This document shows, one piece after another, positions 32,271 to 45,317 of a DNA stretch of 58,539 bases. Under the pieces are notes generated by a model, which saw only the letters and a program-made list of their open reading frames with translations, did not search any database and was not told where the DNA came from. Source of the stretch: Phycisphaerales bacterium (GTDB lineage Bacteria; Planctomycetota; Phycisphaerae; Phycisphaerales; SM1A02); assembly GCA_044377725.1 (NCBI GenBank), contig JBILYM010000001.1:1-58539 (forward strand), given 5' to 3'. Position numbers and translations under genes: made by a program. The first letter of the stretch is position 1, and every line of letters begins with the position of its first letter.

Positions 32271-33353
32271 ATGCCTGACGACGATTTTGACATCGATCTT
32301 TCTCCAGAGGTGCCACCGCCGTTCGACTGGAGCGCGGTACAGAGTCCACAGCTGGATCTGGGGGCTATAGCTCCTCCTCCTCCTCCGCATGGCGCTCCGG
32401 GCACTCATGGGGCGCAAAGTCAAGTCCCTCCCGCGCCGTTCGTGCGAGACCGTATTGTCGTGCTTGGTCGGCGAAAGGCTGGCAAGTCGGTGTACTTGGC
32501 ACGCCTATACGAGCGTCTGTGGAACTCAAAGGGTGAGCTGCACATGGCGGCGGTCGATGGGCGAACACATACGTCCTTGCTGCTTCAGATCGATGCGATG
32601 ATGAAAAAGCTATGGCCAGCGGCGACGGAAGCCATGGCGCATTTCAAGGTGGACATTACCTATCGACAAGATCGGTATTTGATGATTGCCCCCGATTATC
32701 CAGGTGAAATCTTCAAGCGTGCATTTATGGAGGATTCGGACGAGCCGCTTGTTAAGGATCTCTTGGAAACGTGTGATCGCGCCGCAGCTGTCATCGTCTT
32801 AGTGGATCCGGAGGTCAATATCACCGGGAATTTGATGGAGCAGACTGAGCAGGATTATGGTTTGGTAGCAGCGATCAAACGGATTCGTGAGTCGCCTGGC
32901 GCCGAATTCGTCCCTATCGCGATCACGTTGACGAAGTGTGATGTCTTCCGAGCAGAAATCGAGGAGGCAGGAGGGCCAGCGAAGTTCGTCAAGGAGAATT
33001 ATCCCAATCTCTGTCGTGTGGCGTTTCCGGCGGGGCGTAGCGGAATGGTCTTCGCGTGTGCGGCTGTTCACGTGAAGCGCGACGGTATGGAAAAAGAGAT
33101 TCCGGATATGTCCAAGCCGCCCAAGGGTTTGATCGAGCCCATTGAATTCTGCTTGCGTGCAATGCGCGCCAATCGGCGAGAGTCACAGCAGCGTCAAGCG
33201 GAGAATGCGCAACGAGTATCGGTAGAGGCCGCTCGTGTTGCAGAACAAGAACTTGAGCGGAAGGATCGATTTGTCTCAACCGCAACTTTATTGGGATCGA
33301 TATTTGTGGCGATCGTTGTGGTGGTAATCCTTGTCGTCATGTTGATGAAGTAG
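32271..33353 (+). CDS. Locus gene M: tail-anchored TRAFAC-type GTPase
   Basis: G1 GRRKAGKS (32466-32489), G3 MIAPDYPGE and G4 ITLTKCDV. The C-terminal TM helix is TLLGSIFVAIVVVVILVVMLMK. The N-terminus is Pro-rich. Confidence 0.75.
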   Translation: MPDDDFDIDLSPEVPPPFDWSAVQSPQLDLGAIAPPPPPHGAPGTHGAQSQVPPAPFVRDRIVVLGRRKAGKSVYLARLYERLWNSKGELHMAAVDGRTHTSLLLQIDAMMKKLWPAATEAMAHFKVDITYRQDRYLMIAPDYPGEIFKRAFMEDSDEPLVKDLLETCDRAAAVIVLVDPEVNITGNLMEQTEQDYGLVAAIKRIRESPGAEFVPIAITLTKCDVFRAEIEEAGGPAKFVKENYPNLCRVAFPAGRSGMVFACAAVHVKRDGMEKEIPDMSKPPKGLIEPIEFCLRAMRANRRESQQRQAENAQRVSVEAARVAEQELERKDRFVSTATLLGSIFVAIVVVVILVVMLMK

Positions 33354-33371: not shown

Positions 33372-35618
33372 ATGAACATTTCTGCCGATTCACACCTGTT
33401 CGGATCACGCAAGGGCTACGAATGCCTGGCGAAGTCGGCTGGCGTCACGTCCGGTGAGGACCGCCAACTTTCTGAATTCGGATTCGGTCAAAGTACAGAT
33501 GAACATTTTTTGTATGGACTAGCCACTCAGCCCACTGCATTTGGCCGCCCATTGAGTAGCGGTCGAGTGGCGATTACGCGCGTGATGGTTGGCCCTCTTG
33601 ATGATGGCGGTCGCCCCACTCTTGAGCGACGCACGATGATCGTCTCGGCCGCAGACTATTTGGCGATTCGACACGATTTGAAAGCGTTGATCAAAGACAA
33701 TGTTTGGGGTTCGTCGGCGTTCGCCGGTGGATTGCCAATACGGGTTCCAACCGCGGGAATGAGCCGCCGAAGTGCAGCGGACGCGTTGGCGTGGCGCATC
33801 TTTGACGCATGGGTCATCGGCATTGAATCCCGTCCGCCGAGGGGGGTTGTCATCGCTCCTGCAGCTGCTGGTGGCGACCAGGCACGAGCGGCAGACGCAG
33901 TCTTGACATTGGCTAGTCAATTGGCTGACGAAGACGCCGTGAAATTCAAGTGGGGCATCCGGCTTCTATCTCCCATCGAATGGTCCGATGTTCTGACGCT
34001 CTCGTCTGCTGGCGTGATGGATGGCCGACGCCCAGTGCACGGAATTGGCGCTGCCTGCGTCAAGCCAGAAGTCCAACGCGCCCAAGCTGCGAGTCCTGGG
34101 ATGCTGCCGACGGTGACATCGCTGCAGCGTGCAGCGATTCAGGAGGCGGTAGAGTTGGTTGACGACGGCATGTGGGATGGCGTTGGCGGTGGGGGCATCA
34201 TTCCGCCGCAGGGACTTTCTATGAAGAGGAAGCAACCCAAGCGAGCATTGATCATCGCGGCGATCGTCCTTCCGATCATTGGTCTGACCGCGCTTGGGAC
34301 TGTGAGTTGGTTGATTTGGAGGAAGCCTGGGGGAAGTGCGCCTGCGCCGGCGACCACTGATACGGTGATGCGCGAGCCCGCTCCTGCATCTGGTTCGGAT
34401 CCTGCTGCCCCCGCCAATCCAGCCGCTCCTGCATCGGGTTCGGATCCTGCTGCCCCCGTTACTCCAGCCGCTCCTGCATCGAATTCGGAACCTGCTGCCC
34501 CCGCCAATCCAGCCGCTCCTGCATCTGGTGCGAATCCTGCTGTCCCCGTTACTCCAGCCGCTCCTGCATCTGGTTCGGATCCTGCTGCCCCCGTTACTCC
34601 AGCCGCTCCTGCATCTGGTTCGGACCCTACTACCCCCGTTACTCCAGCCGCTCCTGCTGAGCCGAACGCCCCTAAATCGCCACTCGATCTGGGCGCATCG
34701 GAGGGCCTAATCAATACTTTGACGGATGACATCACGGTGAATGAGATCATGAAGTTTCCGGAGTACGAGATTTGCCAGAAAGAAGTGGATGCACTCAAAG
34801 AACTCGTCGGACTATCGGGATTGACGAAGGGCGGCAAGCTAATGTTTGATTTAGCAGGGATGGCTAAGAAGGCTGAGAAGGCAGATCGTGACCGGCAAGT
34901 ATTTAAGAATCCGCACGAGAGTTTGGCCGAAAAGGAATTTCGCGACAAGATGGACGCACTAAAGGGCTGGAACCACACGCAGTTATCGCAAGCGCAAAAA
35001 CGCGTGTTGAACTTTCAGCGCGCGAAGATTCAGGACCTTCGCGTATCTCCCCATTCGTTTGCCCAAACTAAAATGATAGACATGGAGAGCTTGAGCAAGT
35101 CAATTAAAGATTCGCTGAAGAAACCATCCGATCTTTCATCACAAGAGCGGAGCGACACAATGCTAACCATCATGCATTTTTGTTTGCGGCTATCGATTTC
35201 GCAGCGGTTTGACAGCAAACAGAGCAAAGCGGCATCAGCACAGTCCGCTACTTTGAGTGAGGTAAAGCGAGTTCTAGATGAAGTTGTGGCAGTTTTTCCA
35301 AGCGATGACGGGGCCGCTAGGGAGGCGCTGAACTTTATCCGGCCATTACTTCCGTCTTCCCTTACTAGTAACGAGGGGTTGATTGGACAGGGGATTTATT
35401 GGGAAAAGTACTCGATGACCAAGTCAGACACCAAGAGATTCCTGCGCAGTTCGTATTGGCAAACTCTTGAACTCAAAGGCGATGACATCTCCTGCAACGA
35501 TTTGTTCGAGGCATTGATTGATGCCGTATGTCCACCGGACCTCCGGGTGGGCCAAGTGGCAATTACTTTGAATGTCTTCCGAACTGCGATGGGCTACCCC
35601 ACGGCGAAGGCAAACTAG
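33372..35618 (+). CDS. Locus gene N: GAP1-N-like domain - TM helix - 6x15-aa Pro/Ala repeat - ~300-aa C-terminal domain (CTD-X) shared with gene O
   Basis: The N-terminus has GSRKGYECLAKSAGVTSGE and LDDGGRPTLERRTMIV, similar to gene Q. The TM helix is ALIIAAIVLPIIGLTALGTVSWLIW. The tandem repeat lies at 34380-34649. The C-terminal region from KFPEYEICQKEVDALK onward is closely similar (well over half of residues identical by eye) to the C-terminus of gene O. Confidence 0.7.
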   Translation: MNISADSHLFGSRKGYECLAKSAGVTSGEDRQLSEFGFGQSTDEHFLYGLATQPTAFGRPLSSGRVAITRVMVGPLDDGGRPTLERRTMIVSAADYLAIRHDLKALIKDNVWGSSAFAGGLPIRVPTAGMSRRSAADALAWRIFDAWVIGIESRPPRGVVIAPAAAGGDQARAADAVLTLASQLADEDAVKFKWGIRLLSPIEWSDVLTLSSAGVMDGRRPVHGIGAACVKPEVQRAQAASPGMLPTVTSLQRAAIQEAVELVDDGMWDGVGGGGIIPPQGLSMKRKQPKRALIIAAIVLPIIGLTALGTVSWLIWRKPGGSAPAPATTDTVMREPAPASGSDPAAPANPAAPASGSDPAAPVTPAAPASNSEPAAPANPAAPASGANPAVPVTPAAPASGSDPAAPVTPAAPASGSDPTTPVTPAAPAEPNAPKSPLDLGASEGLINTLTDDITVNEIMKFPEYEICQKEVDALKELVGLSGLTKGGKLMFDLAGMAKKAEKADRDRQVFKNPHESLAEKEFRDKMDALKGWNHTQLSQAQKRVLNFQRAKIQDLRVSPHSFAQTKMIDMESLSKSIKDSLKKPSDLSSQERSDTMLTIMHFCLRLSISQRFDSKQSKAASAQSATLSEVKRVLDEVVAVFPSDDGAAREALNFIRPLLPSSLTSNEGLIGQGIYWEKYSMTKSDTKRFLRSSYWQTLELKGDDISCNDLFEALIDAVCPPDLRVGQVAITLNVFRTAMGYPTAKAN
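34380..34649 (+). repeat. 45-nt x 6 in-frame tandem repeat (APASGSDPAAP[AV][NT]PA), plus a partial seventh unit
   Basis: Units start at 34380, 34425, 34470, 34515, 34560 and 34605, each beginning gctcctgcatc. A few substitutions per unit alternate between ccgccaatcc and ccgttactcc variants. Confidence 0.9.
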
Positions 35619-36640
35619 ATCGATGCTGATTTGCCGAGTACCGCAGTAATGCATAGGAGCGACTCCGCGGCAGCGGGGGTCGCGCGGTTCCTGCAGAGCG
35701 GAGGGCTACGCCGATGTCGCTATCCAGCGCTGCGTTAGCGCCACCCCATCGATTGTCGGAAGTCTGCCAACATTTGCTTCAGGCTGTCACCCTGTGAGGC
35801 TGTTGGGCAAACAGCACAAATCAATCCTTCGAACAAATCGTTGCAGGAGATGTCATCGCCTTTGAGTCCAAGAGTTGGCCAATACGAACTGCGCAAGAAT
35901 TTCTGGGTGTCTGGTTGCCTCATCGAGTACTTACTCCAATACACACCCTGTCCCGCCAACCCGCCGTTACTACTTGGGGTAGACGGAAGTAATCGTTGGA
36001 TAACGTTCAGTACATTCTGAGCAGCCCCGACATCATCGCTCGGTCCGGCCGCTACAACTGCTGCCAAAACTCGCTTTATGTCACTCAAATCAGCGGACTG
36101 TGCTACCGCAGCTTTGCTCTGTTCGATGTCAAATCGTTGCGAAACTGATAGCCGCAAACAAAAGTGCATGATGGACCGCATCGTGTCGATCCGCTCTTGT
36201 GATGTCAGATCGGATGCTTTCTTCAGCGAATCTATAATTGACTTGCTCATGCGATCCATGTCTAGCATTTGAGTTTGGGCGAATGGTCGCGGAAGTTCGG
36301 GATAGGTGAACAGCGCCCGGCTCTGGAACTTCAACACACGATCTTGAGCTCGCGATAGTTGCGAGGGACTCCAGAGCTGTAGAGCGTCCATCTTGGCGCG
36401 AAACTCGGCGGCGGCATGGCTGCGCACGGTATTCGGGCTGTCTGGCCACTTTTCTCGAGTATCAAGTTCGCGTTTAGCGTTGATAGCCATGTTTGGTAAA
36501 TCAAACGCCAACGTTCGCTTACCGTTTTTCGCCACTCCCAGTAGTCCGACGAGAGACTTCAGTGCGTCCACTTCTTTCTGGCAAGCCACGTACTCTGGAA
36601 ATTTTAGTACATCCGATTTTCCGATGTCATCACTCAATTT
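34720..36640. repeat. Imperfect ~0.9-kb inverted duplication formed by the 3' ends of convergent genes N and O
   Basis: The protein C-termini are paralogous. At DNA level there is a 39-nt perfect reverse-complement match (35471-35509 vs 35829-35867), and several other stretches differ by only a few substitutions by eye (for example 35171-35235 vs 36105-36170). The antisense ORFs 35030-35227(-) and 36078-36272(+) translate to near-identical peptides. Confidence 0.85.
35659..35683. terminator. GC-rich hairpin in the 116-bp convergent spacer (possible bidirectional terminator)
   Basis: gcgactccgc-ggca-gcgggggtcgc forms about a 10-bp stem with one bulge and one G-U pair. There is no clear U-tract on either strand, so this is weak as an intrinsic terminator. 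Confidence 0.3.
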
Positions 36641-37648
36641 ATGGAAAAGGGTAATTGCCGGTTGGTTTAGCGCGAACTTCGGCACTGGTAGGGCCTCTGG
36701 TTTAGACCCAGGCTTACGCGGAGCAGTCGTTGGCTTCCGCGCCGGCTCGACTATCAGTGCAGGTGCATTAGTGGGCGTCGGTGCAGGCGCGGGTGTTGGT
36801 TCCAGCGCGGGGTTCGGTTCCGGAACGGCCTCCCGTGCAGGCGCGGGTGTTGGTTCCGGTGCGGTCATCGATTCCGGTGCGGGCGTTGGTTCCGATTCCG
36901 GTGCGGCCGTCGGCTCGGGATCAGGAGCGAACTCAGGATCCGGAGCCCGGGCACGCGTGGTGGTGCGCCGAGGATTGGGTGTGGGCTTGATCCCACTAGC
37001 AATGAGATTCAAGATCAAGAGCGCCACCCAAACTGCGGCGGCGACACCAATGGGCTTGATCCATTGTTGGCGCGCGTACTTGTTTCCAAACTGAGTTTGG
37101 ATGTACAGCACCTGGGAGCGCGCTGAGATGAAGTACCAACTGAATAGAACGCCGAGATACACACCCAGCGGCGACATGGATAGCAAAGTCGGCACCGGAG
37201 GTTGGAGCAATTGACCGACTGTAAATGCGAGAAAGGCAGCAAAGCCGACATAAGCCCAGATCATCGACTTGGATGCTTTCTGCGGCTCGTTGAGAGCTTT
37301 CCAGTTCTTCGCGTGTAGCCATGCACCAAATCCAACACTGAAGACGAGGCTCCAGTTCACCGCTGCAGTGGGATTCCAAAGGGGTGGGCTGATGCGTCCG
37401 CCCCCACGGGAGGCAGTTGGCGGGAATCGATGGCCGCCGGCATTGGTCCACAGTTCTGGAACAGTAGACGCTGGCACCCAGCCGGCAAATCCCGCTCGCC
37501 ACATCATGGTTTCCGGCTCAATTCGACCTGCGGCAATCATGCCTTGAATTTGGTGGTCATCGAGCGGGCCAGCTCTCTGCCGATCGTTGGACATGAAGTA
37601 CCAAGCAGCCACGTTGGGATCCGATCCGAATTGAGGAACAGCATTCAC
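35735..37648 (-). CDS. Locus gene O: GYF_2 (DUF4339) domain - 4 TM helices - Pro/Glu/Thr-rich repeat - CTD-X paralogous to the C-terminus of gene N
   Basis: The GYF-like motif is WYFMSNDRQRAGPLDDHQIQGMIAAGRIEPETMMWRAGFAGWVPASTVPELW. Four hydrophobic segments follow, then APDPEFAPDPEPTAAPESEPTPAPESMTAPEPTPAP. The C-terminal KFPEYVACQKEVDALK...GDDISCNDLFEGL matches gene N. GTG start at 37648. Confidence 0.7.
   Translation of the reverse strand: MNAVPQFGSDPNVAAWYFMSNDRQRAGPLDDHQIQGMIAAGRIEPETMMWRAGFAGWVPASTVPELWTNAGGHRFPPTASRGGGRISPPLWNPTAAVNWSLVFSVGFGAWLHAKNWKALNEPQKASKSMIWAYVGFAAFLAFTVGQLLQPPVPTLLSMSPLGVYLGVLFSWYFISARSQVLYIQTQFGNKYARQQWIKPIGVAAAVWVALLILNLIASGIKPTPNPRRTTTRARAPDPEFAPDPEPTAAPESEPTPAPESMTAPEPTPAPAREAVPEPNPALEPTPAPAPTPTNAPALIVEPARKPTTAPRKPGSKPEALPVPKFALNQPAITLFHKLSDDIGKSDVLKFPEYVACQKEVDALKSLVGLLGVAKNGKRTLAFDLPNMAINAKRELDTREKWPDSPNTVRSHAAAEFRAKMDALQLWSPSQLSRAQDRVLKFQSRALFTYPELPRPFAQTQMLDMDRMSKSIIDSLKKASDLTSQERIDTMRSIMHFCLRLSVSQRFDIEQSKAAVAQSADLSDIKRVLAAVVAAGPSDDVGAAQNVLNVIQRLLPSTPSSNGGLAGQGVYWSKYSMRQPDTQKFLRSSYWPTLGLKGDDISCNDLFEGLICAVCPTASQGDSLKQMLADFRQSMGWR
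36781..36930 (-). repeat. Degenerate ~54-nt-period in-frame repeat encoding the Pro/Glu/Thr/Ala-rich spacer of gene O
   Basis: gtgcaggcgcgggtgttggttcc occurs at 36781-36803 and again at 36835-36857 (+ strand). ggttccg/gattccggtgcgg-type subunits follow. Confidence 0.7.
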
Positions 37649-37756
37649 GGGACATGGAGCCGAATGCGGCTACCCCGGACGAAGGTTACCGTAGGAGTCA
37701 CATTCTGTCGATTTTTACCGGTTCCATGTATCCACGCACCTCATCTGCACCGCGAG

Positions 37757-40700
37757 TCAATCCACTCGGTAGATAAAGGAATAGGAAGGACCGGAAGAAC
37801 CGCCTTCCGCGAGCGTGCCACCTTCAAGCCGGATGGGCTTCAGACTCCATGCCCCTCCGGCGATGTCGTGTTCGAGAAGCATGAATCGGCCATTCAGGTT
37901 CGATTCTGAGGCTCGGCGCCGTGCCTCGCCAGGCACTTTGGGGAGAAGCAGGCCAGCAATCGTGGTTGCGCGTGCGGACTTCGATACACCAGCCCATTGC
38001 GCTGATCGACTCTGCACGGCGGCTTTCAGGTCGGGAATGGAGTCGAGAAACAACTGCGCAGAGCGGCGTAGATTCTCACGCTCTGCCTTTGGATCGGCCT
38101 TTGAAAGTGACAGGGCTACCCAGTCTGCTTCAGTCAACTTCAACGCTTCAGGGCTGTGCAGCACGCTCTCCAATTTGCCACACAATGACTGATCGATACC
38201 CTCAGGGAAGGAGAGGCTTTCGACGAATACCTGGAGAGCGTGCACTATGAAGTTGGCCAATCCCAGAATTTCGGTGGCTTTAGTCTTGGATTTGACTGAC
38301 ATCCGTGCACTCTCGATTGCACCGAGCCACGCATTCTGCGCCACGATGGCATCTGAGCTCCCGAACGCGGGCGTTGCTTGAGTGAAAGCGTCACACCATG
38401 GCGGGACCTCGCGTCGCGCGCTTCCGTTCACGTCACCGCTTCGTACTTCTATGTTGGCCTTGAGTTCGGTCAGTGGCACCGTCAGCTCCTTGCAGCTGAA
38501 GAGTAGCCCTGCAAGGGATCCGGTTCCTGGTCCGCCGTCGCGCATGAACGCCCAACGATTTTTTGTCAGCGAAAGCTGCTGGATAGACAAGAGACCAGTG
38601 TCTTTGAGTTGGGCGAGTGCGCTGAGACCAACGAGAGCTCCATCGTTTGCGGAGATAGTTTCACACATAGCGATGCAGCCTGTAGCGGCACTGGTGTATG
38701 GCGACGTTGGGAAGCTATGCAGATGAGCTTCGAGGGACTTACGAAATGTAGCTGCTTCTTGCGAAGAGGCAGGTATCGCTATTCCCGATGACTTTGCGGA
38801 TGTGGCAGGTCCGCCAAGCACCACTTCGCGCCAATGCTGCAGTGCGAGCGCTACTTGGGCCATATCTCGCGTCTCATCTAATACCGCGGTGGGCAGCCCC
38901 AGCGCTTTCAAAGTTTCGGGCTGGGCCAAGAGTTCAGTGATTCGCTTCGAGAATTCCTCCTCGCTTGTCGGTGTCTTGGAGAGACGAGCGAGCGCGCTTT
39001 CCGCAGTTGCGATCGCGAGTGTCGTCCGTTCGATAGCGCCGACTTGTTCGCCTAGTCGGGCGGATACATCTGTGGCCACTTGCCGTTCTGGGTAATTCGC
39101 TGGAATCTTGCGGACAAAGTCATCACAGCGCTTTCGAATGGCGTTGGCCTGCGACATCCATGAGATGCTTTGTTCGCTACCTGCTGCTCCGACCGGAGCA
39201 CCCAACGCATCGGCATCACGTCTAAGAGTTTCGAGCTCTTCAGTGATCGGACGCCGCCGGTCTGCAATTCGCTTGACTTCTTCAGCCTCGACAGTCTTGA
39301 GTAGTTCTTCAGCCTCGGTTCGTTCTGTGGGTGCTAGTTTCGCGGTTGAGTCAGAGTTAACCGACAGCGCGTCGCGGATGGATTTCTTGAGCGCGGTCAG
39401 GCTTGCATCGTCAGTCGCTGGATCCTTGCTGGCTGCGACAGTGCTTTCCAGCAAGCGTCGTACTTCCGCTCGACGGGCGGAGTTTGCAAGTTCGGCCTGC
39501 GCGACGACACGTTCGGCCTCAACCATTACTGGATAAGAAAGTGCCCATGGGGTAGTGGACTTGATAGCAGCGAGTCGATTTTTTGCCCCGGCTAGATCAC
39601 CTGCCTTCGAAAGCCCTTGAACGTCGGCAGCCATCACTGCTACTTCTGCTTGTTTTTGGGCAGCCGCCATCGAAATGCTGAACGTCGTGATCGCCGCGGC
39701 AATCGCGACAAGCACAGCGGCAATGATCAGTCCAATGATGATCCTTCGACGCGTGATCGCAGCACTTTGGACGCGCACGAAGCGTTCCGCGAGATCCTGT
39801 GGAACACCAATTCCGTAGGACTCGACTGCAGAGCGCAGACGTGACAACTCTAGTTGGCTCGTTTTGCGATCGAGACCGAGACGCAGTTCAGTACAGGCGT
39901 TGTTGTGTGCAGCTTCGACGCGCAGTCGGGCAAGCTCGGTTTCAGACCACTCGATCGCCTCCTTGGTGCGTTCTCGGAATTTATCTCCGGGGCTGCAGCG
40001 GCGCTCGCGTTCAACGGCATCGACCTCTTCTGAGAGCGATCCGACCAGCATTAAGTCTCGCCGCGCATATGCAGCCTCAATCCGCGTGGCTAGTTTGGCA
40101 TACAACTCGGCTGCTTCTCGTCGACGTTCCCGCGAGATCTCGGACTGAAGCCAATCGTAGAACTCAGCGGACAACTGGGATTGCCACCCGAGCCCCTCGA
40201 TCGCATCCAATGCGTCGACAAGTGTCTGGTGTTCGCCACGCATGGAGGCGGCCCTGCACGTCGATTCAAGTGCGGCGAGTGCCTCTGTCTCATAGCGTTT
40301 GGCAAGCTGTTTTAGGGCGGGATTACGAGGTGCCGCGGCTAGGAGCGTCTGCAGCTGCTGCATTCGAGTTGCTAGCGATTGTCGGGCAAGTACGGAAGTC
40401 TGAAATCGTTGGACCAGTTCATCAAGCGACGAGGCGTCGCCGACCGCGTCGGAGAGCGCGACGAATGCGCGCTCATCAATGCGGCTATTGACCGAAATCC
40501 CAGCCATATTGCATGCCTGATCCCACTCCAGTCGCCCTTCGTTCATGTTCAACTGAAATGCAACCTTGCAAAGTTCCGGGTAGGACTCGTTCACCGATGC
40601 TGCCTCAACAATGAGTCCACGGCTTGCCCACTCGCTCAGCATGCGCAGGTAGCGATTACAAGTGACAATGCGCAACTCGAGCATCTCACGCACTTCTTCG

Positions 40701-40813
40701 ATGCGCTCCTGCAGCGTCCCTGGAGTGCATGCGTCACGCACGATCGATATCAATTCACTCGCTTCTGCTGGTGTAATCTCGGGATAGGCATTCATGTGGT
40801 TGGATTGATTCAT
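37757..40813 (-). CDS. Locus gene P: 1018-aa single-pass membrane protein (helical/coiled-coil cytoplasmic N-domain, large helical ectodomain)
   Basis: The ATG at 40813 lies 13 nt after the stop of Q. The TM helix IIIGLIIAAVLVAIAAAITTFSI is preceded by RRR. No recognisable family. Confidence 0.65.
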   Translation of the reverse strand: MNQSNHMNAYPEITPAEASELISIVRDACTPGTLQERIEEVREMLELRIVTCNRYLRMLSEWASRGLIVEAASVNESYPELCKVAFQLNMNEGRLEWDQACNMAGISVNSRIDERAFVALSDAVGDASSLDELVQRFQTSVLARQSLATRMQQLQTLLAAAPRNPALKQLAKRYETEALAALESTCRAASMRGEHQTLVDALDAIEGLGWQSQLSAEFYDWLQSEISRERRREAAELYAKLATRIEAAYARRDLMLVGSLSEEVDAVERERRCSPGDKFRERTKEAIEWSETELARLRVEAAHNNACTELRLGLDRKTSQLELSRLRSAVESYGIGVPQDLAERFVRVQSAAITRRRIIIGLIIAAVLVAIAAAITTFSISMAAAQKQAEVAVMAADVQGLSKAGDLAGAKNRLAAIKSTTPWALSYPVMVEAERVVAQAELANSARRAEVRRLLESTVAASKDPATDDASLTALKKSIRDALSVNSDSTAKLAPTERTEAEELLKTVEAEEVKRIADRRRPITEELETLRRDADALGAPVGAAGSEQSISWMSQANAIRKRCDDFVRKIPANYPERQVATDVSARLGEQVGAIERTTLAIATAESALARLSKTPTSEEEFSKRITELLAQPETLKALGLPTAVLDETRDMAQVALALQHWREVVLGGPATSAKSSGIAIPASSQEAATFRKSLEAHLHSFPTSPYTSAATGCIAMCETISANDGALVGLSALAQLKDTGLLSIQQLSLTKNRWAFMRDGGPGTGSLAGLLFSCKELTVPLTELKANIEVRSGDVNGSARREVPPWCDAFTQATPAFGSSDAIVAQNAWLGAIESARMSVKSKTKATEILGLANFIVHALQVFVESLSFPEGIDQSLCGKLESVLHSPEALKLTEADWVALSLSKADPKAERENLRRSAQLFLDSIPDLKAAVQSRSAQWAGVSKSARATTIAGLLLPKVPGEARRRASESNLNGRFMLLEHDIAGGAWSLKPIRLEGGTLAEGGSSGPSYSFIYRVD

Positions 40814-40826
40814 CGCCTTGGTTTCT

Positions 40827-41858
40827 TCATCGACGCAACATCAGCAGTACGACAGTGGTGGCTATCGCTAGCAGCAGCACCACAGCCGTGGTGATCGCTG
40901 CGTACAGATAAACAGTCGATGTTCTGTGTTCGGGTGGGGCGGGGTTGGGCGCTGATCCGGATGGATTCCTCCGATTCATGGTTGATGCCACGGAGATCGG
41001 AGCGGTTGATTGTTCGTCGATGACGGCCACTGGTGGGGCAAGACCGCTCAGGTCGAGCACCGGTTCCTGACGCCGGGCGCCGGCGGCGGGGGTGCGGCGC
41101 GGCGGTTCCGTCGGACCAATTGGCGGGCTCGCGGTGCCGCGTGCGTTGGTCCAATCAGCAATCGGACGTGACGTGCCGGGTACGCCTTGTTGTAGGAGCA
41201 CGAGACTTGTCGCGATGCTGCCATGGGAATCCTCCGTCGTCGCGATGCGCAATGCTGATGGTCTGAGAGACTTCTCAACGATCGCGGCGATGATTGTCTG
41301 GACTGGTGCATTGCGCGGTATCAGTAATCTCGCGGGTTCGTTGTGTGTTCGGGAGCCAATTGCGGCAAGGTGCGCTGCCCAACCTTCAGCATGATCGGTG
41401 AGGGCTTGGAGTGCGGCATGTGCTGAATCGAGGATGGCGGCTGGTGCCGCGGTTGGGGCATGTCGCAATGGAAGGCGCCGAGGCTGCCCTTGGAAGTTCT
41501 GGCAAAAAACGCCATCATCGAGCAACACCGCGGCGATAGATGCGGCGGTGAGCTCCGTGCCCATGAGTACAAGATGATGCGCAAGGCGGGCTGGTCTGCC
41601 AGTGTGGTCGGCTACCACAGGCACGATCCGTGATAAGACCATGGCGGGACCGGTGGCAGTCGTGACCGGCCACAGCCTGAGCACTGCATGGGCGGCGGCA
41701 TCGCTCGATTTCTCAATCCGCGCAACGGTGGTTGCAGATGCGTTCGCTAGCGCTGCAATGAGATCTGCAGCCATCCCCTCGCTACATGCAACTGTGGTGT
41801 ATCCCGAGCGGTCGTCGAAGAGTCCTTTCGGGGCAGAAGTGTGGATGAGCTCGAGCAT
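40827..41858 (-). CDS. Locus gene Q: tail-anchored GAP1-N-like protein (GTPase-associated)
   Basis: The start is taken at MLELIHTSAPKGLFDDRSGYTTVACSEGM (ATG 41858, 13 nt after the stop of R). The ORF-track start at 42008 would overlap R by 137 nt. ADHTGRPARLAHHLVL resembles the DxxGRxxxxxxHxLV element I recall for GAP1 N-domains. The C-terminal TM helix is VYLYAAITTAVVLLLAIATTVVLLML. Confidence 0.6.
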   Translation of the reverse strand: MLELIHTSAPKGLFDDRSGYTTVACSEGMAADLIAALANASATTVARIEKSSDAAAHAVLRLWPVTTATGPAMVLSRIVPVVADHTGRPARLAHHLVLMGTELTAASIAAVLLDDGVFCQNFQGQPRRLPLRHAPTAAPAAILDSAHAALQALTDHAEGWAAHLAAIGSRTHNEPARLLIPRNAPVQTIIAAIVEKSLRPSALRIATTEDSHGSIATSLVLLQQGVPGTSRPIADWTNARGTASPPIGPTEPPRRTPAAGARRQEPVLDLSGLAPPVAVIDEQSTAPISVASTMNRRNPSGSAPNPAPPEHRTSTVYLYAAITTAVVLLLAIATTVVLLMLRR

Positions 41859-41871
41859 GGAATCGTCAACA

Positions 41872-43101
41872 TCAGGCGAGCATTGGGAACACCTTGGGAT
41901 CCGACATGGCGATCGCAAGCACGAAGGGCATTTCCGCCCATCGGGGTCGGACGTCTGCAGCACGCAGTTTGAAATGGCCGTCTGCGTCGCGGGTTGGCGA
42001 AGTACCAAGCGCGCTCGCCGGAACGAAGATGACCTTTTGTGCCAAGATGTTCGCGGCGTTTAGAAACTCTGGTGCCGTCTCTCGCAGTGCCTCGCGTGCG
42101 AGTTGGTCGACCTCTTGAAGTTTGGCTATCAACCGCTTCCGTCGGGGTATCAATGCGTCCGGGAGGTCGAGTTCGGACCAGTCCGCACCCAATGCCTTGT
42201 CCGCCCAAACGTCGGCCTTTGTGAGTGCAATGATCAAGGGAATAGGGATCGGCGCCGTCGGATCCAGTGAGCGGAGGCGGCGAACACGGGCGATAGCTTC
42301 GGTAAGTACAAGTTCCTGTCGTTCGTGCCGGCCGGTGTGTGGCGCATCAAATCCGTCGGCGAAGCGATCACGGAATCGTGCGTCTTGCAGCGGGTCGAAC
42401 ACAGTAACGATCGCGCTGCTCCGTTCGAGATGGCGCGTCGCGATTTCTGCACCAGCAAACTGACTGTCCGGGAGAAAATGCTCGCCAGCATTGTCATACA
42501 GAACCATCACCGACCGGCGGGTTTCATCTTTGTGGCGTGTCACGAAGTACGACGGCTTGGTGAGCGTTTCAGTCTGGCCACCGATGCGCACCGAGCGATA
42601 CAGATCGTTACCGCCAACATCGGTCTTCGGCAGTGTGACGTCTGCGGAAGGATCGCGCGTCGCAAACAGCAAGCTCTCGTTGCGGTGTAGCAGTGCGTTG
42701 AAACGAGGATCGGCATCCACGATCTCCAAGCCGAAGTCCGCTGCCCGCTGTGCAAGACCCCACATTCCAGAGGCGAGCAGATTGGTCTTTCCGGATCCTG
42801 GCGCGCCGACAACTGAGATTGGAATCTGACGGAGTTCCAGCAACGCCCGTGGGAACTCAATGTGGCAACGCGGACAGGCTATGCGTGTGCACCGACCGTC
42901 GTTTGGATCGATCGCATTTCCGGATGCATCGAAGCGCATCGCGCGGAATCGCAGTTGCTCGGCCGGCCCGGCGATTGGGTCACCGCGGAGTTGGACGCTC
43001 TCTGCAATGAAACGCACTTGGGTTGGCGGAAATTCACGCCAACAGTTCGGGCAGACGACAGATCGCCTAAGGGATGTACCGGAATCCTTGGCCGTGGCCA
43101 T
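41872..43101 (-). CDS. Locus gene R: Zn-ribbon + TRAFAC-type GTPase
   Basis: CPNC...CPRC (C17/C20, C76/C79) precede G1 GAPGSGKT (42784-42807), G3 VLYDNAGE and G4 IIALTKADV. No TM helix. Confidence 0.75.
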   Translation of the reverse strand: MATAKDSGTSLRRSVVCPNCWREFPPTQVRFIAESVQLRGDPIAGPAEQLRFRAMRFDASGNAIDPNDGRCTRIACPRCHIEFPRALLELRQIPISVVGAPGSGKTNLLASGMWGLAQRAADFGLEIVDADPRFNALLHRNESLLFATRDPSADVTLPKTDVGGNDLYRSVRIGGQTETLTKPSYFVTRHKDETRRSVMVLYDNAGEHFLPDSQFAGAEIATRHLERSSAIVTVFDPLQDARFRDRFADGFDAPHTGRHERQELVLTEAIARVRRLRSLDPTAPIPIPLIIALTKADVWADKALGADWSELDLPDALIPRRKRLIAKLQEVDQLAREALRETAPEFLNAANILAQKVIFVPASALGTSPTRDADGHFKLRAADVRPRWAEMPFVLAIAMSDPKVFPMLA

Positions 43102-43199: not shown

Positions 43200-45317
43200 T
43201 CAACGCGTCTTTATGGGCTGGGGAGGCAATTTGAATTGCGCATCCAAATCCTTCGGCACAGGGATTGCCAGTACATGACTAAGGCGCGCTCGCGAGACCC
43301 AGATTCCATTCGTGTAGTCACGCCCTAAAGCACTGATGAGTGATTTACGTTTCTCAGGGTCGGCTTCGGCCCCGAACATTTCAAGCAACTGTTGAACGGA
43401 TGGTTTTTTATCGATGCCATGTGTCAAATGCTCGCTTCCCACCGCAATTTTTTGTTGACCCGACTCCACTGCTCTTAGGAAACAATTGAAGTCGCGGCTC
43501 TCGGTGGACGACAGCGATTTGTCGGCGATTTCTGCTAAATCGGGGTACATCTTCAGAATGTGTGTTCGAAACTCCGGTGAACAAACCTCGTCGTCTCCAA
43601 GTCTCGTCGTTTCAAGTCCCCACATGTTGCCATCTTCACCCATAAAGGCCGCAAATGCGTGCCCGGGCGGCATCAAGATCATGCTCGATAGGCCCATTTT
43701 CTCAAGAAAACTACAAATGAGGATCGTGCCGTCAACGCAGTTAGCGTTTTGCGACAACAACGTCTCGTGGATGCTCCTGGTCTCCTGAGCGCTGTGATCG
43801 ACCGAACCTGGTAGCGAGGAGTATCGCAAGCCGCGCGCCTTCAATTCTCGCCACAGCAGAAATACCGCGAAGAAGGACCGGTGGGCACCTGCGCCCCCGG
43901 ACGCGGACATCCCAGTGCGCTTCGCGAGAGAGCACTGATTTATTTGGTTCAAGATTCTCTCGACCCAAGGGTGACCCTCGTTGACCATTCCTACGAATCC
44001 GAGACGCATCGGATAAGAGGTTTCGACAAGGTCGGGCGGCATGATCGTGACGGTTTCAAGCATGCGCTCGTCTTCTGACCCATCACCGTATTTGACACTC
44101 ACCGACATGGTGATGGTTTCTGGCGCAGTTAACTTCGCGAGTTCGTCTATGTCCCACTGGGGTTGGAGCCCGATTTCCCAAAGGTCCGAATCATGCTCAT
44201 CCTTCGATAGCCAAACACATTCTGGATGTTCTCCTTCAGCGAGGTGGACCGATTCCTGTTTAGTCGCTTGTCCACCAGAGAGAAGTCTCCGACCTGCAGC
44301 GTTGCGTAACTCAATCTCAACTCGAACATTAGTGCCGGTCGGCGCATTTGTGAAGTACACGCTGAATACGGGTCGAGTGGCATCGAGCCAATCCGATTGG
44401 CTGATGAATTGCGCTCTGCAGACCAGTTCGAGGGGGTTGGTCTCGGCTCCGTCCGCCGCTCTTGACATTGAAAATCGATCTACGAACCAGTCGACCTCTT
44501 GACCGGCTGGAACCGCCAATCGTTCCGCTTCTACCTCAGCAAGTGCGATTTCCGAGTTAGCGTAGACCACTTTGTTAAACGCCAGTTTGGCGCCGATTGA
44601 CTTGGCGAGACCCGTTGTTCCACGTTGAATTGCGACCGTCGCCTGCGAGGGTTGTTTGGGCGCTGGCGCTGGCGCTGGCGGTGGCTCTGGAGCTGGTGCT
44701 GGAGCGGGTGTTGCTATCGCACTGGGCACGCCTGCTGCGGGGGCGGCGGCACGTGCGACCGTCGCGACGGGGGTCGCTTTCGCCACGATTGGTGCCTTGG
44801 TCTCCGCTCCACCAACGGTTCCGGACGCCGTTCGGTTGCCTGCGGAGTTCTGCGGCGCGGGCTCAGATACCGCGATGCTCGTTGGTTGTTCGAGCGGAGG
44901 TGCTGGCCGCCTAAAGAACATGGCAGCACCGATTCCGACGGTGGCAACCAGTGACAACATTCCGATCCCGATCGCTACGTAGAGCACTCCCCGCCCGCGT
45001 CTCCCCGCCGACGGTTGGTTGATCGGGGGCGCTAGAAATGGTGCTGCTACTGATGATCGGGCAGGGGGTTCCAATACCGGACCTAGCGAAATAGATCCGC
45101 GATCCGGGGGTGCCCGCTCAAACGCAGGCAGAGACGCTGATGCTGCAGCCCGTGGCTGCGGAGGCGCGGATGGACGATGTGCGCGTTTGTGCAGATTTCT
45201 GGCTGTATGAGGAAGAACCGTTCGACGCCCGCAACGTTTGCATCGCACTTCTTCCGCAGTCGTCCCCTCGGGAAGAATCAGGGACGCTCCACAGTGTTGG
45301 CAATCAACGGTGTTCAT
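43200..45317 (-). CDS. Locus gene S: Zn-ribbon - TM helix - Pro/Ala-rich spacer - ectodomain ending in a transglutaminase/papain-like Cys-His domain
   Basis: CQHC...CKRC lies at the N-terminus. The TM helix is VLYVAIGIGMLSLVATVGIGAAMFF. PAPAPAPEPPPAPAPAP follows. NANCVDGTILICSFLEKMGL...PGHAFAAF...WGLETT gives Cys527 (codon 43737-43739) and His553. Confidence 0.65.
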   Translation of the reverse strand: MNTVDCQHCGASLILPEGTTAEEVRCKRCGRRTVLPHTARNLHKRAHRPSAPPQPRAAASASLPAFERAPPDRGSISLGPVLEPPARSSVAAPFLAPPINQPSAGRRGRGVLYVAIGIGMLSLVATVGIGAAMFFRRPAPPLEQPTSIAVSEPAPQNSAGNRTASGTVGGAETKAPIVAKATPVATVARAAAPAAGVPSAIATPAPAPAPEPPPAPAPAPKQPSQATVAIQRGTTGLAKSIGAKLAFNKVVYANSEIALAEVEAERLAVPAGQEVDWFVDRFSMSRAADGAETNPLELVCRAQFISQSDWLDATRPVFSVYFTNAPTGTNVRVEIELRNAAGRRLLSGGQATKQESVHLAEGEHPECVWLSKDEHDSDLWEIGLQPQWDIDELAKLTAPETITMSVSVKYGDGSEDERMLETVTIMPPDLVETSYPMRLGFVGMVNEGHPWVERILNQINQCSLAKRTGMSASGGAGAHRSFFAVFLLWRELKARGLRYSSLPGSVDHSAQETRSIHETLLSQNANCVDGTILICSFLEKMGLSSMILMPPGHAFAAFMGEDGNMWGLETTRLGDDEVCSPEFRTHILKMYPDLAEIADKSLSSTESRDFNCFLRAVESGQQKIAVGSEHLTHGIDKKPSVQQLLEMFGAEADPEKRKSLISALGRDYTNGIWVSRARLSHVLAIPVPKDLDAQFKLPPQPIKTR
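44659..44710 (-). repeat. Hexanucleotide-type (GCTGGC-like) in-frame microsatellite encoding (PA)n/(PE)n
   Basis: The + strand reads ggcgctggcgctggcgctggcggtggctctggagctggtgctggagcgggtg. Confidence 0.7.

Follow-up and report, generated by a model that had tools for sequence, protein, structure and literature searches.

An old pair of inverted paralogs, one constant and one hypervariable, ends two convergent DO-GTPase/GAP1-type operons in a planctomycete

Gene conversion holds whole genes nearly identical in the tufA/tufB pair and in rRNA operons, Neisseria pilE/pilS and Borrelia vlsE achieve antigenic variation from donor cassettes, and the CdiA-CT and Rhs-CT polymorphic toxins undergo C-terminal cassette replacement. 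Closest in gene content to the locus reported here are the planctomycete GAP1-N2 DO-GTPase systems, which are coupled to GYF proteins fused to a transmembrane (TM)-rich region (Kaur, Burroughs, Iyer and Aravind 2020, eLife; PMC7159879). We analysed a 58,539-nt stretch of DNA from a Phycisphaerales bacterium (positions 1 to 58,539 of JBILYM010000001.1; hereafter the window, to which all coordinates refer), in which two putative systems of this kind face each other and end in a pair of paralogous genes, N and O. An earlier note on the same DNA had described the inverted duplication formed by the two gene ends. It overlooked the main feature of the locus, namely the hypervariability of the N arm between strains, in contrast to the conserved O arm.

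Like the described GAP1-N2 DO-GTPase systems, the locus includes a DO-GTPase, a GAP1-N2 protein, a TPR protein and a GYF protein with a TM-rich region. It also shares their membrane-proximal character and their combination of a constant core with one component that is highly variable between close relatives, here the part of N that follows the TM helix. Unlike those systems, the locus has a C-terminal domain of ~300 aa that does not figure among the described domains and lacks a Pfam model, and the variable component has a conserved paralog that ends the facing operon. Furthermore, two systems stand tail-to-tail here, Srf-type genes lie in the same operon, and no FNIII-repeat protein was recognised, as no operon protein gave an FNIII hit in Pfam searches of the sequences.

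N and O are transcribed convergently onto a 116-nt spacer, with no open reading frame (ORF) between them in the ORF list of the window (Table 1). The inverted homology spans about 34707 to 36649. A repeat search resolved it into inverted blocks of 270, 231, 95 and 87 nt with 77-81% complementarity, and blastn of the N arm against the O arm returned 74.9% identity across 806 nt (E = 7e-151), establishing an extended inverted duplication. In a protein-guided alignment of 297 codons the two copies share 60% aa and 72% nt identity, so that the C-terminal ~300 aa of the two proteins are indeed paralogous, as the earlier note had claimed; the peptide motifs quoted there are all found in both domains. 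Its 39-nt exact inverted match was likewise confirmed by direct comparison and is not extendable on either side. The imperfect inverted duplication of ~0.9 kb therefore stands, but the 116-bp centre assigned to it does not: homology at the DNA level ends at 35534 and 35804, leaving a non-homologous centre of about 269 nt that consists of two divergent C-terminal tails plus the spacer.

The convergent N/O pair is present in all relatives, namely the metagenome contigs L001-L005 and L007, a contig of a metagenome-assembled genome (MAG; L006) and one NCBI assembly known from gene layout alone. These provide five full genotypes, named W (the window), L2 (L002), L3 (L003), L4 (L004, identical in L001 and L005) and L6 (L006), plus two partial ones; L7 denotes L007. 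The L006 record (CALQCP020000011.1), the sole relative from a genome collection, is titled 'MAG: Chitinophaga pinensis', a label made doubtful by 57% G+C and a planctomycete-type system.

Identity profiles against these relatives delimit a cassette in N with sharp edges, inside which nucleotide divergence is about 30% and outside which the flanks are 91-100% identical. The left edge falls at about 34329, directly after the N TM helix, where identity to L003 and L006 drops from >90% to 0-70%. The right edge lies in the spacer at about 35690, and identity to L002 is back at 95-100% by about 35696. W shows 4 differences from L002 in 4524 nt (36329 to 40852), with the neighbouring 1018-aa protein 99.7% and the O protein 97% identical in aa sequence, versus 70% nt and 56% aa identity for the N domain. 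Against L003 and L006, the first 319 aa of N are 94-95% identical and the C-terminal domain only 52%, while the flanking genes retain 88-99% aa identity with a synonymous divergence (dS) of 0.02-0.43 and a ratio of non-synonymous to synonymous divergence (omega) of 0.03-0.36, ignoring the L006 TPR row as an alignment artefact. Over all compared genomes, flank dS is 0.00-0.43. The C-terminal domain of O is itself locally more diverse, with W and L002 differing at 33 sites over 607 nt and at only 4 over the next 4524 nt, and this raised diversity may reflect variable recombination end-points. Within it, O of W carries a cluster of private substitutions (36177-36328, minus strand) relative to the O copies of L2, L6 and L4.

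Divergence among the copies shows that the duplication is old. O copies of W, L2, L6 and L4 are 92-96% identical at the nucleotide level (dS 0.06-0.18), and comparisons involving the L3 lineage give about 82-86% (dS about 0.4-0.5). In contrast, the N copies fall into four allele classes (W; L2/L7; L4; L3/L6) that share only 65-73% nt identity, with dS 0.59-0.89 and non-synonymous divergence (dN) of about 0.3. N and full-length O copies are 70-75% identical (dS 0.49-0.74), the N alleles are roughly equidistant from O, and each N is equally far from resident and non-resident O copies. The tails also remain distinct: every N copy finishes in ...YPxxKxN, every O copy in ...SMGWR. O is thus 82-96% identical to its orthologs and only about 72% to its resident N, the opposite of what concerted evolution would produce, and the O-O, N-N and N-O values together exclude both whole-gene concerted evolution and a recent duplication.

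Nonetheless, the two arms of W are more similar in nucleotide sequence than their proteins require, as the earlier note had suspected. Identical codons are used at 136 of the 176 identical residues (77%), against 39% expected from window codon usage at synonymous saturation. NG86 estimates for N versus O are dS = 0.53, dN = 0.31 and omega = 0.58, so synonymous sites are not saturated. Under a null with saturated synonymous sites and a constrained protein, none of 5000 simulations produced a 39-nt run (mean 13.9, maximum 35). When the observed synonymous differences were instead redistributed on the same protein alignment, a run of at least 39 nt arose in 11% of trials (P = 0.11); the run sits inside a 13-aa identical stretch. 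Because of this last value, the 39-mer within this genome alone is not proof of conversion, and the evidence for it is drawn from other strains.

Comparison of the alleles across strains revealed four near-identical N/O tracts, of 70-114 nt and at differing positions (Table 1). In a Sawyer-type permutation test on 458 polymorphic sites, conversion between paralogs was detected at p of about 5e-4 for N and O of W, N and O of L2, N of L3 with O of L4, and N of L6 with O of L2; the tract scan found none in N of L4. Sister alleles are discordant in the way that conversion predicts, both for L3 versus L6 and for L2 versus L7. N of L3 has 1-2 mismatches per 60 nt to O within its own tract. In the region of the W tract, which was copied from O to N in the lineage of the window, the other N alleles differ from O at 15-25 sites, and N of W carries O variants of the W/L2/L6 type rather than the L4/L3 type. 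At the same position N of L7 is nearer to O than its sister N of L2 (13 versus 20 mismatches per 60 nt). In cases that allow polarity to be judged, N acquires O-type sequence and the O copies remain O-type; for some tracts, the direction of exchange is one that we infer. N-to-O distance is below N-to-N diversity along most of the domain, with O acting as a hub, and together with the polarity this fits recurrent short gene conversion from O to N. The earlier proposal of gene conversion between the arms therefore holds for discrete tracts but not for the arms as a whole, and the sequence comparisons support conversion that appears recurrent but patchy and leaves the arms unhomogenised. An N-like segment in O of L3 was also considered as a reciprocal exchange and dropped, as the divergent O ortholog P0005 has the same segment, indicating a divergent O lineage.

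Table 1. Coordinates of the features discussed, in window positions; tracts of other genotypes are placed at the equivalent positions of N in W.
Feature	Position	Strand	Details
Gene N	33372-35618	+	748 aa; last gene of the plus-strand operon (ORF, translation)
Gene O	35735-37648	-	637 aa; last gene of the minus-strand operon
Intergenic spacer	35619-35734	.	116 nt separating the N and O stop codons
N copy of shared domain (left arm)	34707-35615	+	303 aa
O copy of shared domain (right, conserved arm)	35738-36649	-	304 aa
Hypervariable N allele cassette	34329-35690	+	linker, C-terminal domain and first ~70 nt of spacer; identity profiles
Tract, N of W/O of W	35443-35509	+	70 alignment columns, 67 nt of N, 2 mismatches; core is the 39-mer 35471-35509
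O partner of the 39-nt perfect match	35829-35867	-	exact reverse complement of 35471-35509; exact comparison
Tract, N of L2/O of L2	equivalent to 35143-35256		114 nt, 1 mismatch; sister N of L7 3-6 mismatches per 60 nt vs 0-2 for N of L2
Tract, N of L3/L4-type O	equivalent to 35307-35402		102 nt, 2 mismatches; sister N of L6 20-25 mismatches per 60 nt plus 15-nt deletion
Tract, N of L6/O of L2	equivalent to 35036-35113		78 nt, 1 mismatch; common to N of L3
Pro/Ala-rich linker tandem repeat of N	34378-34657	+	45 nt x 6.2, 88% matches (Tandem Repeats Finder)
DO-GTPase gene directly upstream of N	32271-33353	+	PF19975 38.4 bits, PF19993 36.4 bits (cut-off 27); both exceed their cut-offs
GAP1-N2 gene and DO-GTPase2-like gene, O operon	40830-43101	-	pair also in the distant relative L008

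Overall, we consider it probable that the locus combines an old gene pair, a constant O, recombining variable alleles of N and occasional patches copied from O to N. In this explanation, N and O would be the membrane-anchored terminal genes of two adjacent, convergent DO-GTPase/GAP1-type 'conflict system' operons, each ending in a lineage-restricted, predicted all-alpha domain of ~300 aa that follows TM helices and a proline-rich linker. After the old duplication the copies would have diverged in regime, with O evolving slowly and the post-membrane part of N persisting as several deeply diverged population alleles. These alleles would be reassorted among near-identical genomes by homologous recombination, for which the conserved 5' half of N and the 3' end of O could serve as flanking homology. 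Diversifying (frequency-dependent) selection on a component for recognition or sensing would be expected to leave such a pattern. We infer the kind of selection, in that diverged alleles persist in near-identical backgrounds, and by analogy with the systems described by Kaur et al. 2020 (PMC7159879) the post-membrane module of N is most plausibly the component that gives its system variable recognition. Because the copies are close (about 0.3-1.9 kb apart) and inverted, RecA-type recombination could occasionally transfer patches of 70-114 nt from O to N. The 39-nt perfect match would then be the core of the most recent patch in this genome, and such patches would be too short and too rare to homogenise the arms.

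Several observations weigh against this explanation. The private substitutions of O show no preference for the resident N, matching it at 6 of 21 sites, no better than non-resident alleles, so the resident N is unsupported as their source. Because these substitutions ignore the resident N, transfer from N to O is unproven, and part of the history would involve inter-strain recombination or donors that have vanished. The direction of the L2 tract is assigned by parsimony only. In addition, no 30-codon window has a ratio of non-synonymous to synonymous differences (pN/pS) above 1 (maximum 0.87, overall 0.59); omega does not demonstrate positive selection, and relaxed constraint plus recombination could be sufficient. 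The sample is also small, with all but one of the five full and two partial genotypes coming from metagenome assemblies, and for L002 the identical flank might in principle have arisen in assembly, through the joining of two strains within the spacer. The whole cassette is contained in the L003 and L006 contigs, which show the same N/O asymmetry as L002.

One elaboration of the preferred explanation, which we regard as unlikely, is that the N and O domains are functional partners, for example in a hetero-oligomer that bridges both DO-GTPase systems at the membrane. Copying from O to N would then be more than a by-product and would keep interface segments of N compatible with O while the rest of N escapes recognition by invaders, and the coupling can be likened to that of effector-associated domains, which join components by homotypic contact. 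If this were true, it would constitute a two-gene 'constant template / variable sensor' arrangement undescribed for bacterial conflict systems.

Among the rival explanations, programmed or frequent inversion survives best. An inversion system resembling shufflons, the Mu G-segment or hsdS would swap the C-terminal segments of the two genes, with the 39-mer as crossover site. The arms are indeed inverted and homologous with exact runs of 39-67 nt, two successive inversions would mimic patch exchange, and the locally raised diversity of the O C-terminal domain is compatible with such an origin. However, Pfam searches identified no recombinase, integrase or invertase domain in the 58.5-kb window, and orientation and tail-to-gene assignment are the same in six of six genotypes, a small sample of assemblies only. 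The tracts are non-reciprocal where this can be judged, and the identical runs sit at differing positions across alleles, with no fixed site. Inversion is therefore very unlikely.

Selection on a nucleotide-level element, such as a cruciform, an RNA embedded in the arms, or duplex formation or antisense regulation involving the 3' ends of the two genes, could in principle account for the similarity of the arms without recombination. The genes converge 116 nt apart with no canonical terminator and could read through, and a read-through transcript might form a foldback, given 81% complementarity of the arms over 231-270 nt. The near-identical tracts are nonetheless placed differently in each allele, available sister alleles differ from O at those positions, and N alleles that diverge by about 30% in nucleotide sequence maintain no conserved pairing register. 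The complementary 3' RNA ends anticipated by the earlier note were not borne out either. With an inverted repeat in convergent genes, the N and O mRNAs are same-sense paralogs and not complementary, and pairing would need read-through into the facing gene, as is true of any convergent pair. As for a cruciform, widely spaced arms disfavour extrusion on general grounds, and with about 320 nt between the perfect arms it is unlikely here.

The hairpin reported in the spacer offers this explanation no further help. A GC-rich stem-loop, GCGACTCCGC-GGCA-GCGGGGGTCGC, does exist, but it is neither conserved nor significant nor terminator-like. Dinucleotide shuffles fold as well as the spacer does (z = 0.0 and -0.15), the spacer has no Rfam match, and a sequence scan found no terminator-like or promoter-like site and no T-run in the region. 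A different hairpin sequence is present in L3, L4 and L6 (GCAGCG-GCTT-CGCTGC), and the 69-nt spacer of L2 carries a deletion of the hairpin. The conserved GC-rich hairpin and U/A tracts of a bidirectional intrinsic terminator are thus absent, and a functional spacer hairpin or terminator was rejected as a candidate. Taken together, these points make a selected nucleotide element highly improbable.

We judge it no more probable that the mosaics and discordant N alleles are an assembly artefact, produced by chimeric joins in short-read metagenomes, whether at k-mers in common or between strains living together. L006 is the one comparison locus that is not a metagenome contig, a de Bruijn graph could be misled by exact N/O runs of 39-67 nt, and the switch in L002 from a divergent N to the flank with 4 differences in 4.5 kb falls in the spacer. 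A chimera would switch once, however, and the tracts are islands of 70-114 nt with allele-specific sequence on both sides. Moreover, the L4 genotype was assembled identically from three samples (L001, L004 and L005), and L003 and L006 independently give the same N allele class, spanning the cassette together with conserved flanks.

A recent duplication whose young arms are simply drifting apart was suggested by the earlier note, and the unsaturated synonymous sites and excess codon identity described above would agree with it. It is scarcely credible, because both copies, with their distinct tails and N-terminal architectures, occur in every related genotype, including those at flank dS up to 0.43, N-O dS (0.5-0.7) exceeds every flank dS, and the O orthologs form a tight cluster away from all N. 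Finally, targeted hypermutation of N with O as invariant template, in the manner of a diversity-generating retroelement, would match the adjacency of an invariant and a variable copy and the rough equidistance of the N alleles from O, but it merits almost no weight, given that no window ORF of at least 150 aa encodes a reverse transcriptase (RVT), mismatches show no adenine bias (A 23-27%, C 27-31%, G 26-29%, T 17-20%), and divergence extends over 900 nt including indels at dS 0.6-0.9 and an omega of about 0.45-0.6, as expected of old alleles and not of fresh mutagenesis. The mismatch rate between N and O of W also differs little by codon position (0.26, 0.27 and 0.32). The base-unbiased mismatches, the lack of a reverse transcriptase, integrase or invertase in the window and the omega of the N alleles, in which synonymous change is as abundant as non-synonymous change, together argue for old alleles reassorted by recombination rather than local hypermutation.

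The shared domain is an undescribed orphan family confined to a narrow lineage. It had zero matches in Pfam, NCBIfam, PADLOC and PDB sequences. Among 5.8 billion proteins a word-indexed search returned 4 hits, among 1.84 billion cluster representatives an exhaustive profile search recovered 3 true relatives and 1 spurious repeat protein, and a scan of the metagenome-contig collection gave 0 relatives. An AF2 model is all-helical at a pLDDT of 48, which is poor and unreliable. Despite the hypervariability, C23, H157, C159, C263 and C275 of the domain are invariant across all N and O copies, and the four Cys and one His could form a metal site or disulfides, judging from this conservation.

The two proteins reach the shared domain by different routes. 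In N, a conserved N-terminal domain (aa 1-about 290) precedes a single TM helix (aa 293-311 by hydropathy) and a Pro-rich linker, whereas O begins with a GYF_2 domain (PF14237, E = 9e-18) followed by a TM-rich region (2-4 helices by hydropathy) and its own Pro-rich linker. The N linker is allele-specific, with a PETKPETT-type linker instead in N of L003, and the O linker (36773-36894) contains a degenerate tandem repeat of 18 nt x 6.8. The N-terminal domain of N (33372-34250, plus strand) is very rare, with 3 relatives among 5.8 billion proteins. It aligns in register with GAP1-N2 through LF..R.GY and D.GRP motifs, a non-significant match (E = 0.28 and 0.09) that is only suggestive of a GAP1-N domain.

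The plus-strand operon that ends in N consists of 15 tightly packed genes and runs from 10262 to 35618. SrfA-like (vWA), SrfB (PF07520) and SrfC (PF10139) homologs are joined in it with a TPR protein, a DO-GTPase and N; the TPR gene also lies upstream of N, with the Srf homologs further up. Srf genes are unmentioned in the DO-GTPase paper (PMC7159879). A GAP1-N2 protein beside a GTPase was found in the O operon (PF20013, 56 bits, E = 5e-15), and the N operon offers only the weak N-terminal alignment above. The adjoining DO-GTPase2-like gene (41872-43101) scores 25.8 bits against PF19993, just under the cut-off of 27. As listed, the GAP1-N2 ORF (40827-42008, minus strand) overlaps the upstream gene by 137 nt and its orthologs align no earlier than residue 51, which makes the ATG at 41858 the probable true start. 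Also in the O operon, a 705-aa protein (43200-45317, minus strand) has a zinc-ribbon-like N-terminus, and its aa 387-563 give a local match to an NCBIfam anti-phage ProA model (E = 5e-16) that is far below cut-off. The 1018-aa protein had no match, with nothing at all in Pfam. Housekeeping genes, including aconitase, 3-hydroxyacyl-CoA dehydrogenase and peptidases, are among the remaining genes of the window.

In L008, a more distant relative, the convergent layout of two operons is preserved: an N-like gene faces genes for GYF, GAP1-N2 and DO-GTPase2 proteins, and neither the N-like nor the GYF protein has the shared domain. Between the N-like and GYF genes are two additional ones (261 and 494 aa; 2158-4575 of L008), which resemble the domain only at the level of motifs (MRLCLLLRA, LELFNALIG). 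The resemblance is not significant, and they were not retained as remote homologs.

Compared with recombining paralogs elsewhere, the arms share with bacterial paralog gene conversion, as surveyed for concerted evolution (PMC6053082), non-reciprocal short tracts within one chromosome and runs of identity that break the gene tree. Unlike tuf genes and rRNA operons, they are about 28% diverged, the tracts measure 70-114 nt and one partner is hypervariable. The conserved N-terminal part of N, its sharp breakpoint, its strain-variable C-terminus and the exchange of alleles by recombination recall CdiA-CT and Rhs-CT. In contrast to those proteins, however, the N alleles belong to one fold and family (52-60% aa identity) instead of being unrelated toxin domains, and no immunity gene lies downstream of N, where the 116-nt spacer is followed by O. 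In fact, all alleles are homologous, searches of Pfam, NCBIfam, PADLOC and PDB sequences gave no toxin domain hits, and no secretion signature was present, so N does not qualify as a polymorphic toxin. As at pilE/pilS and vlsE, a variable gene takes short patches non-reciprocally from a nearby homologous donor. Here, unlike there, the single donor is O, a conserved gene of full length in its own right, copying brings N closer to O, and N diversity comes from old alleles exchanged between strains.

The 'constant core plus hypervariable component' logic proposed for DO-GTPase/GAP1 conflict systems finds in this locus a concrete example, defined at the sequence level. In genome scans, an inverted coding repeat whose core is perfect can be a sign of patchy conversion onto a polymorphic cassette; neither a recent duplication nor a structural element of RNA or DNA need be involved. 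With mapped cassette boundaries, several natural alleles and a conserved in-genome paralog as internal control, allele swaps are straightforward and could ask whether the C-terminal domain of N sets the specificity of the system.

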